Below are positions 39,643 through 40,849 of a stretch of DNA of 64,000 nt, piece after piece. Both the position numbers and the translations under genes were made by a program. Position 1 is the first letter of the stretch, and each line of letters starts with the position of its first letter. The notes under the pieces are model-generated. The model ran no database searches. It had not been told where the DNA came from and saw only the letters and a program-made list of their open reading frames with translations. Source of the stretch: a virus (lineage: Duplodnaviria > Heunggongvirae > Uroviricota > Caudoviricetes); the IMG/VR virus record IMGVR_UViG_3300032163_000007, positions 21,587-85,586 of that record. One strand, 5' to 3'.

Positions 39643-40497
39643 ATGGAAAGAATAGCACATAAGTTTGAGGGTGGGGTAGAGTTAAAGTTTTGTCGCAGGT
39701 GTGCGTCCTGGCACCCGTTAGAAAATTTTTACGTAAGCAGTAAAACTTGGGACAAACTCTATTGGTACTGCAGTACGTGCATTTCTTTGATAAATAGTGA
39801 GCAGGTGAAGAAGCGAGCTGCTCTCAAGGGCCCATACATCCAGAGGACCAACCACAGGGTGGACGGCGGGGTAGAGCTCAAGCTCTGCAATAAATGCCAC
39901 AGATGGCTGCCTCTAGACAAGTTTCATAAAACTAAGGGTACATGGGACTGCCGAAAAACTCAGTGCGTTGAGTGCAATGGCAGGAGGGACGTCCAATGGA
40001 GAGCGCGAAATGAGGATCGTCGGAGAGAGTATAACCTACAATGGGAAGCGCAAAACGCAGATAAGATTAGAGAGATTAGGAAATCACTCTCAAAGCGTTT
40101 GCGGGAGTATGTGAGGCACACCCGGGCGTATGCTAACTGGAGGCGGGAGCAGGTTCAAAAACACTCTTCATGTAGCGTTATATCTGGTCCCGGCACCAAG
40201 CTTAATGTGCACCATTACTCGAGGTCTAGTCTAAGTATTATCGAGGAAGTGGCACGGGCGTACAGCGTTGCACCTAATGCTCTGGTGGACAAGCTTGAGA
40301 AGAGTGTCTTAGAGAAAATTATAAAAGACTACAATGAGATAAACTCTCAGCAGGTGGGAGTTCCGCTGACTAGAGCCGAGCACAACGAGTTCCATAGGCT
40401 TTACGGACGTACTAACAACACGCCTGAGCAGTTTGAAGCATTTTTTAAAACAAAAATAGGTAAAGATTTTAAGGAGCACCCCAATGGGATTAGTTAA
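39643..40497 (+). CDS. putative HNH-type homing endonuclease with a duplicated zinc-ribbon N-terminus
   Basis: Repeat 'GGVELKxCxxCxxWxPLxxF' x2; 'NVHHYSRSS...EHNEFHRLYG' is HNH-like. Confidence 0.45.
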   Translation: MERIAHKFEGGVELKFCRRCASWHPLENFYVSSKTWDKLYWYCSTCISLINSEQVKKRAALKGPYIQRTNHRVDGGVELKLCNKCHRWLPLDKFHKTKGTWDCRKTQCVECNGRRDVQWRARNEDRRREYNLQWEAQNADKIREIRKSLSKRLREYVRHTRAYANWRREQVQKHSSCSVISGPGTKLNVHHYSRSSLSIIEEVARAYSVAPNALVDKLEKSVLEKIIKDYNEINSQQVGVPLTRAEHNEFHRLYGRTNNTPEQFEAFFKTKIGKDFKEHPNGIS

Positions 40498-40849
40498 GAA
40501 AGCTAAGGAGTTAGTGTTCAGTCTTACCCAAAAAGACTTTGAGTTCCAAACCTACAAAAAAGGTGGAAATGGTGGACAGAAGGTTCAGAAAACCGAGTGC
40601 TGCGTACGGTGTATACACAACCCCAGTGGCGCCGTAGGCAACGCCTGCGAGCACAGGGAACAACGCAAGAACAAGGAAATGGCTTTTAAGCGTATGGCTG
40701 AAAGCCCTAAGTTTCAGGGCTGGCTCAAGATGGAGACTGCCCGTAGAATCGCGGCCAAGGCTGGTAACTATGTCGATGATTACATGGCTCCTCATAACTT
40801 CAAAGTGGAAGTAAAGAAGGATGGTCAGTGGGTTGACGAAGTTGTTTAA
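40484..40849 (+). CDS. GGQ-domain protein: release-factor/ArfB-like peptidyl-tRNA hydrolase domain
   Basis: 'TYKKGGNGGQKVQKTECCVRCIHNPSGAVGNACEHREQRKNKEMAFKRM' parallels RF2 '[47 protein letters not shown]'. Confidence 0.7.
   Translation: MGLVKKAKELVFSLTQKDFEFQTYKKGGNGGQKVQKTECCVRCIHNPSGAVGNACEHREQRKNKEMAFKRMAESPKFQGWLKMETARRIAAKAGNYVDDYMAPHNFKVEVKKDGQWVDEVV

Follow-up and report, generated by a model that had tools for sequence, protein, structure and literature searches.

A stand-alone release-factor GGQ domain in a tRNA-rich uncultured phage and its candidate role in ribosome rescue

Identification of a mini release factor gene

What might a release-factor catalytic domain do on its own in a phage genome? 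The question is raised by a gene in a stretch of 64,000 nucleotides (here called the window), which corresponds to positions 21,587 to 85,586 of the IMG/VR virus record IMGVR_UViG_3300032163_000007 (Caudoviricetes). The gene, designated mini release factor (mini-RF), is located at positions 40484..40849 on the plus strand, stop codon included, and encodes a protein of 121 amino acids. It was identified from the open reading frame (ORF) listing and by matches to Pfam RF-1 and PHROG 3122, and its coordinates and length agree exactly with a preliminary description, in which the protein had been read as a stand-alone, ArfB-like GGQ domain. From the analyses described below we infer, with moderate confidence, that mini-RF is a codon-independent, ribosome-dependent peptidyl-tRNA hydrolase, which would rescue ribosomes that stall during infection. 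This reading is supported because the protein is identified as a release-factor-type GGQ domain, its catalytic motif is conserved, its family is conserved over the full length, and the gene is found in a context of translation and RNA-repair genes.

The release-factor domain 3 (GGQ) core was located to residues 11-79 (40514..40720, plus strand) by hhalign comparison with RF1/RF2. When the family profile was aligned with single RF1/RF2 sequences and with an RF1/RF2 profile, probabilities of 99.0-99.7% and E-values of 3e-25 to 5e-18 were obtained. The homology was confined to these residues, which correspond to RF positions ~220-286, i.e., domain 3, with an identity of ~36-43%. Mini-RF scored 55.9 bits (E 4.9e-15) against Pfam PF00472 (RF-1), for which the gathering score is 35 bits, with residues 12-74 aligned to positions 5-68 of the 116-position profile; such an RF-1 match was the check named in the preliminary description. 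Sequence matches in the PDB were to mtRF1, mtRF1a, PrfH and RF2, with E-values between 1e-9 and 3e-8. The motif that had been quoted for the protein was found in all its parts, the first reading T23-Y24...G28-x-G30-G31-Q32-x-V34-x-K36-T37 and the second I44-H45-x-P47-x-G49-x-V51 ... R58-x-Q60-x-K62-N63-K64, and the GGQ tripeptide (G30-G31-Q32, codons at 40571-40579) is intact. At the level of sequence, the RF-1 match is far beyond chance, and mini-RF is assigned to the RF-1 domain superfamily as a stand-alone release-factor GGQ domain.

Mini-RF belongs to a conserved family

The match to PHROG 3122 (3.6e-31), annotated as 'RF-1 domain peptide chain release factor', was full-length and placed residues 5-119 of mini-RF on positions 18-130 of the 136-position profile. 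A tblastn search of GenBank phages returned 209 records with a relative, 206 of which are Mycobacterium phages; the identity was 44-49%, the query coverage was at least 80% in every record, and most of the records carry the annotation 'RF-1 peptide chain release factor'. When 1.84 billion cluster representatives were scanned exhaustively with HMMER, 2039 matched at E<=1e-3, and 321 also reached E<=1e-10; among the 150 with the best scores, most are 105-160 amino acids long and aligned across residues ~7-118. A relative is also encoded on 363 IMG/VR contigs. In a scan of genome contigs, the matches listed were all limited to the GGQ core; most covered query residues 1-71 or 12-98, and every ORF of these loci that was inspected or extracted was a full-length RF1/RF2-type gene.

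Conservation was counted in a family alignment of 74 sequences. G30, G31, H45, N63, W80 and W116 are invariant in all 74 members; 72 members have F77, 72 have E109 and 71 have Q32. The mini-RF of this phage has all four C-terminal signature residues (F77, W80, E109 and W116). In the other three members the catalytic Q is replaced by S or T (GGS/GGT); one of them, P0150, reads GGHGGS, and the same is seen in P0145, a relative outside the alignment. The full-length conservation with invariant residues argues for a conserved family of mini release factors of ~110-130 amino acids, mostly phage-borne, and against a gene fragment. The conservation pattern further indicates that the GGQ catalytic motif is under selection. 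It is conceivable from the GGS and GGT members that the protein is not catalytic and keeps only the fold, either as a remnant or as a regulator or decoy that binds ribosomes. We consider this highly unlikely: this protein and 71 of the 74 members retain an intact GGQ, the flanking residues are invariant, and conservation over the full length extends across hundreds of phages.

With its entry as PHROG 3122 and its annotation in over 200 phage genomes, the family is a known one, so that the gene described here is a divergent member of it. The mycobacteriophage proteins Colt gp201, ScottMcG gp204 and prophiGD54-2 gp125 belong to the same family, with 44-49% identity over at least 92% of the query, and resemble mini-RF in size and in having both the GGQ core and the C-terminal W...E...W module; the mycobacteriophages that carry it are tRNA-rich phages (PMC9583779). 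In contrast to these, the present copy comes from a phage of ~172 kb that is unrelated and uncultured and for which GenBank phages gave no match at the nucleotide level; this copy is flanked by an HNH nuclease gene upstream and by YrlA and Ro60 downstream.

Informative domain fusions were sought in the longer relatives and none were found; the extensions of these proteins are probably mis-called starts or Cys-rich tails. Two members, P0005 and P0007, have Cys-rich, zinc-ribbon-like C-terminal tails. Short GGQ-domain proteins of 64-131 amino acids were also seen, as BFVD matches, in the unrelated Pseudomonas phage phiPsa347 and Acinetobacter phages 133 and Henu6. Because such proteins exist in unrelated phages, stand-alone GGQ proteins seem to have emerged in, or spread among, phages more than once.

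Predicted structure and C-terminal module

The AlphaFold2 model of mini-RF is confident, with a mean predicted local distance difference test score (pLDDT) of 91.6. Strands were modelled around the GGQ loop at residues 20-24, 40-45 and 50-54, followed by helices at 60-73 and 75-100. The best structural matches of the model were domain 3 and the long helix of ribosome-bound RF1, RF2 and PrfH, and in the model the helix after the GGQ core superposes on helix alpha7 of RF1/RF2.

From this model and the 74-sequence conservation, residues 75-121 (40706..40846, plus strand) were delimited as a family-specific C-terminal module, predicted to consist of the long helix 75-100 and a beta-hairpin at 108-119. 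The module contains 8 K+R and 7 D+E, which corresponds to a net charge of ~+1, and residues 100-121 have an isoelectric point of 5.5. A profile of the module alone, searched against the PDB, gave nothing significant (best E 0.12), and neither the RF1/RF2 profile comparison nor the PDB profile search detected a sequence relative of the last ~40 residues.

Comparison with known release and rescue factors

Mini-RF was compared with named factors by two kinds of score: the family profile was used to search PDB sequences, and equivalog scores were taken from NCBIfam models with their own cut-offs. The family profile gave ~65 bits for RF1/RF2, 60 for PrfH, 54 for C12orf65, 33 for ArfB and 22 for ICT1. 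The NCBIfam scores were 44-50 bits for RF1/RF2 (cut-offs 370-423), 48.5 bits for the PrfH equivalog TIGR03072 (cut-off 166.65) and 24.7 bits for the ArfB equivalog NF006718 (cut-off 100), and these three identities were rejected. Because the NCBIfam scores lie far under the cut-offs, mini-RF is classed, on sequence grounds, as none of RF1, RF2, PrfH and ArfB.

The GGQ catalytic domain is clearly homologous to that of RF1/RF2 (E 3e-25). However, mini-RF is one third as long as these factors and lacks domain 1, domain 2 with its codon-reading PxT or SPF motif, and a sequence-detectable domain 4; in addition, the T-G of the compared RF1/RF2 sequences is replaced by S48-G49. Stop-codon recoding was considered as a reason for a phage to carry a release factor and was rejected: no suppressor tRNA is present among the 22 tRNA genes of the window, the ORFs are normal with translation table 11, and the protein has no codon-reading domain.

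With ArfB (YaeJ) and ICT1, mini-RF shares the concept of a stand-alone GGQ domain that acts without a stop codon. The 'ArfB-like' label of the preliminary description therefore holds for the architecture, which is short and has no codon-reading domain. It does not extend to the sequence, given the equivalog score and the much weaker family-profile scores for ArfB and ICT1 than for RF1/RF2, or to the C-terminus, which has no basic tail. Instead of the flexible linker and the basic C-terminal helix with which ArfB probes the empty mRNA channel, a near-neutral helix and a beta-hairpin are predicted for mini-RF.

C12orf65 (mtRF-R), too, is a short protein in which a helical extension at the C-terminus follows the GGQ domain. 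It is, however, a eukaryotic organellar protein with a basic tail, which acts with MTRES1 on split large subunits. The family profile aligned with C12orf65 over positions 6-115 (51-160 of C12orf65), while the C-terminal module alone has no PDB match, so that the long alignment may merely extend the GGQ match. An mtRF-R/MTRES1-like activity, in which mini-RF would act after subunit splitting on a 50S subunit that still holds peptidyl-tRNA, is quite unlikely: the tail is not basic, and no MTRES1-like or RqcP-like partner recurs beside the gene. The latter follows from the lack of a recurrent small neighbour gene in 80 loci, in which no search aimed at MTRES1/RqcP homologs was made.

PrfH resembles mini-RF in being a cut-down release factor without domain 1, and the structural match is strong. 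In contrast to PrfH, mini-RF has no residual domain 2/4 and is ~80-110 amino acids shorter (121 versus ~200).

Genomic context of mini-RF relatives

The gene neighborhoods of relatives were counted in 80 IMG/VR loci, which were dereplicated to 58 groups, with a linkage distance of 8 kb unless stated otherwise. A tRNA gene was present in 26 of the 58 groups and an array of at least 5 tRNAs in 15; RtcB was nearby in 5 groups and PTH2 in 3. Clustering of the ORFs within 4 kb in the 80 loci gave a helicase-like protein (18), PTH2 (7) and RtcB (7), and no universal partner gene of mini-RF. In Mycobacterium abscessus prophages, mini-RF closes a tRNA array that includes a transfer-messenger RNA (tmRNA) gene and lies ~200 nucleotides from RtcB. 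In prophiGD54-2 (locus L002, 1402-7891) the gene is flanked by tRNA-Asp and tRNA-Glu where an array of more than 20 tRNA genes, a tmRNA gene included, comes to its end, and RtcB follows; the arrangement parallels the bacterial PrfH-RtcB2 pairing. RF-1-domain genes have been described as forming the core of tRNA arrays in mycobacteria, and their association with rescue genes was remarked there too (PMC5966550). Linkage of mini-RF to translation and RNA-repair genes is thus recurrent, not obligatory.

Cut-down release factors coupled to RNA repair in biological conflicts are established for PrfH-RtcB (PMC6514570, PMC9304027), and the mechanism of PrfH-RtcB2 has been published (PMC9304027, PMC9223846, PMC12829566). 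Mini-RF might be a functional analog of PrfH, which is a narrower version of the proposed rescue function: it would sense ribotoxin cleavage of the decoding centre or of the A-site tRNA and free the peptide, after which the phage RtcB would religate the RNA. Relatives located 150-700 nucleotides from RtcB in IMG/VR loci L025, L030, L061 and L072, the RtcB linkage in the M. abscessus prophages and the presence of RtcB in the window fit this idea. However, mini-RF scores far below the PrfH cut-off and lacks the reduced domain 2/4 that contacts the damaged site, and RtcB is nearby in just the 5 groups mentioned. The RtcB2 operon of PrfH is not matched here either; the RtcB gene of the window lies 10.7 kb upstream of mini-RF, with ~20 genes between. 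A PrfH-like function is therefore unlikely.

Mini-RF could also be a weapon for host shut-off, causing premature, codon-independent peptide release on host ribosomes and thereby aborting host translation. The protein has no codon-reading or mRNA-channel-sensing element and is hence possibly indiscriminate, and in many phages its gene lies among replication and early-type genes. Nevertheless, phage mRNAs need the same ribosomes, no precedent exists, and mini-RF co-occurs with tRNA arrays, tmRNA, PTH2 and RtcB, all of which support translation. This explanation is considered very unlikely.

Several observations weigh against a general role in ribosome rescue. The linkage to tRNA genes is just modestly above random: a tRNA was found within 300 bp of mini-RF in 11 of the 58 groups, compared with 7.2 expected from random placement in the same loci. 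More than half of the loci lack both tRNA and RNA-repair genes within 8 kb, the mini-RF of cluster C mycobacteriophages lies between DnaE and RecA, and in the window RtcB is not adjacent. Isolated GGQ domains require a targeting element, yet no conserved partner gene was found in the 80 loci. The docking site proposed below for the C-terminal module is a guess, because this module has no sequence relative of known function. Finally, no experimental characterization of any family member was found in the literature searched.

Proposed function of mini-RF

In the rescue function that we favor, mini-RF would enter the vacant A site of a stalled ribosome without reading a codon. Residues 60-100 comprise ~40 helical residues, which would span ~60 Å if straight and could form a rod; this would run from the peptidyl-transferase centre toward the subunit interface, like helix alpha7 of RF1/RF2. 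The W80...E109...W116 module would dock in place of domains 2 and 4 and provide binding energy and specificity, and the GGQ loop would hydrolyze the ester bond of the P-site peptidyl-tRNA. In this way the phage could clear ribosomes jammed during infection, e.g., as a result of mRNA decay or of tRNA or rRNA cleavage by host nucleases, with mini-RF acting beside the phage tRNAs, the RtcB ligase, the CCA-adding enzyme, PTH2 and the Ro/Y RNA.

Should peptide release by the protein indeed be independent of a stop codon, mini-RF would act alone as a rescue factor of very small size, and its recognition module would differ from those of both ArfB and PrfH. It would then be a candidate, too, for countering defences based on the cleavage of tRNA or rRNA. 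Phages with large tRNA sets appear to carry their own means of clearing ribosomes, besides spare tRNAs and RNA ligases. The family is represented on hundreds of phage contigs and occurs in mycobacteriophages that are amenable to genetics, so that the proposal is directly testable.

A more far-reaching proposal is that mini-RF represents a distinct, essentially phage-specific class of rescue factors. The W80...E109...W116 helix-hairpin would be a new sensor for a ribosome that has stalled at a sense codon while its channel still contains mRNA, as could happen when host anticodon nucleases deplete a tRNA. In this phage, mini-RF would work in a module with the adjacent Y RNA/Ro60 and with RtcB, the CCA enzyme and PTH2. 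Neither the mRNA-channel tail of ArfB nor the damaged-site domain of PrfH is built to recognize such a stall. This proposal is put forward tentatively and is rather doubtful. The present gene adds a divergent member and an unusual Y RNA/Ro60 neighborhood to the family and does not constitute a new kind of system.

Downstream Y RNA and Ro60 genes

Directly downstream of mini-RF, a YrlA-like Y RNA and a Ro60 gene were found, both absent from the preliminary description. The Y RNA, with a tRNA-like module, is located at 41039..41152 (plus strand), between the mini-RF and Ro genes. It matched the full model (1-114) of Rfam RF02553 (YrlA) with 41 bits (E 1.1e-7 in a 551-nucleotide search), which does not reach the gathering score of 69, and its Ro-binding stem region aligned poorly. 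Because of the poorly aligned stem, the element may be a variant Y RNA. Its centroid fold comprises a closing stem and T-arm-, acceptor- and D-arm-like hairpins (z = -2.2). The Y RNA ends 146 nucleotides upstream of the gene for a Ro60/Rsr ortholog of 485 amino acids with a TROVE domain (41298..42755, plus strand; Pfam TROVE 70.7 bits; PHROG 850, RNA-binding protein, 3.4e-37). A Y RNA with a tRNA-like module beside Ro60 is a known arrangement, also in phages (PMC4201824).

The closest Ro genes were those of Vibrio phages of 191-196 kb, whose TROVE proteins are 43% identical to Ro60 over the full length; no mini-RF was found in these phages. In one of them, phiKT1024 (L164, 2575-7509), the 350-nucleotide gap before Ro gave no Rfam YrlA match and no alignable sequence. 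Adenylosuccinate synthase lies a few genes upstream of Ro in this phage, hinting at distant synteny with the phage studied here. Among the 80 IMG/VR loci, no TROVE gene was found near mini-RF relatives; a mini-RF gene next to Ro/Y RNA is a feature of this phage alone.

Expression signals and source of the sequence

A Shine-Dalgarno-like AAGGAG was observed by sequence inspection at 40471..40476 (plus strand), 7 nucleotides upstream of the mini-RF ATG. The start of mini-RF overlaps the last 14 nucleotides of the upstream ORF (39643..40497, plus strand), and therefore the two genes look co-transcribed. This ORF encodes a protein of 284 amino acids that matched PHROG 1035 (endonuclease VII, 2.4e-13) and phrog_2255 (HNH, 1.5e-8) and no Pfam family at its cut-off. 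It is probably a homing endonuclease, in line with the adjacent homing endonuclease reported previously. An antisense ORF at 40511..40795 has no support of its own and was read as a mirror of the mini-RF gene. PADLOC models gave no match for mini-RF or its neighbors.

The whole window falls inside the ENA metagenome contig ERZ27247924 k141_804020 (171,862 bp), on which a protein identical to mini-RF was called. Megablast of positions 39600-43200 against GenBank phages gave zero matches; the phage is therefore without a close cultured relative.

Translation and RNA-maintenance genes in the window

The region from 21 to 54 kb of the window is rich in translation and RNA-maintenance genes, and adenylosuccinate synthase is present as well. 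The PTH2, RtcB, CCA enzyme and more than 20 tRNAs that had been noted before were all recovered in the window, on the plus strand. RtcB RNA ligase is encoded at 28603..29799; its Pfam RtcB match of 359 bits starts from residue 39, and the true start may lie downstream of the listed TTG. A PTH2-type peptidyl-tRNA hydrolase is located at 32278..32679, where the gene called on the source contig carries a PF01981 match. The gene at 52269..53723 encodes a nucleotidyltransferase of the CCA-adding/poly(A) polymerase family with an HD domain (Pfam PolyA_pol, PolyA_pol_RNAbd, HD and tRNA_NucTran2_2).

The 22 tRNA genes comprise 19 called by ARAGORN and 3 found by Rfam only; no tmRNA was found in the window by either program. 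The first array (21433..25059) contains 15 ARAGORN calls and the 3 Rfam-only genes, and an HNH gene is embedded in it at 23772-24419. The second cluster (Met, Asn, Gly and Thr) lies at 43175..45961 and was found by ARAGORN and Rfam. The Rfam-only tRNAs (24405-24475, 24642-24713 and 24990-25059) scored 41-51 bits and were not called by ARAGORN, while the ARAGORN tRNAs Ser-tga (21433-21523) and Tyr-gta (22137-22218) were not reported by Rfam at the gathering score.

Besides the HNH gene in the first array and the HNH/EndoVII-like gene upstream of mini-RF, two more genes of homing-endonuclease type were observed, an HNH_repeat protein by tRNA-Met (43303-43971) and a LAGLIDADG protein (57100-58155). 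Their occurrence agrees with the described linkage of HNH genes with tRNA arrays (PMC5966550).

Gene calls on the source contig also revealed a 7-deazaguanine (preQ0/queuosine-type) synthesis cluster at 34052-37625 on the plus strand, consisting of PTPS/QueD (34052-34555), radical-SAM QueE (34552-35220), a weakly matched phosphoribosyltransferase (35354-35782) and a type I GTP cyclohydrolase (36810-37625), which suggests modified DNA or tRNA. Finally, an anaerobic ribonucleotide reductase, NrdD, of 1022 amino acids is encoded at 13193-16261 on the plus strand. The 562-position Pfam model was matched in two stretches, an ATP-cone was matched too, and the protein is long enough for an intein or other insertion.

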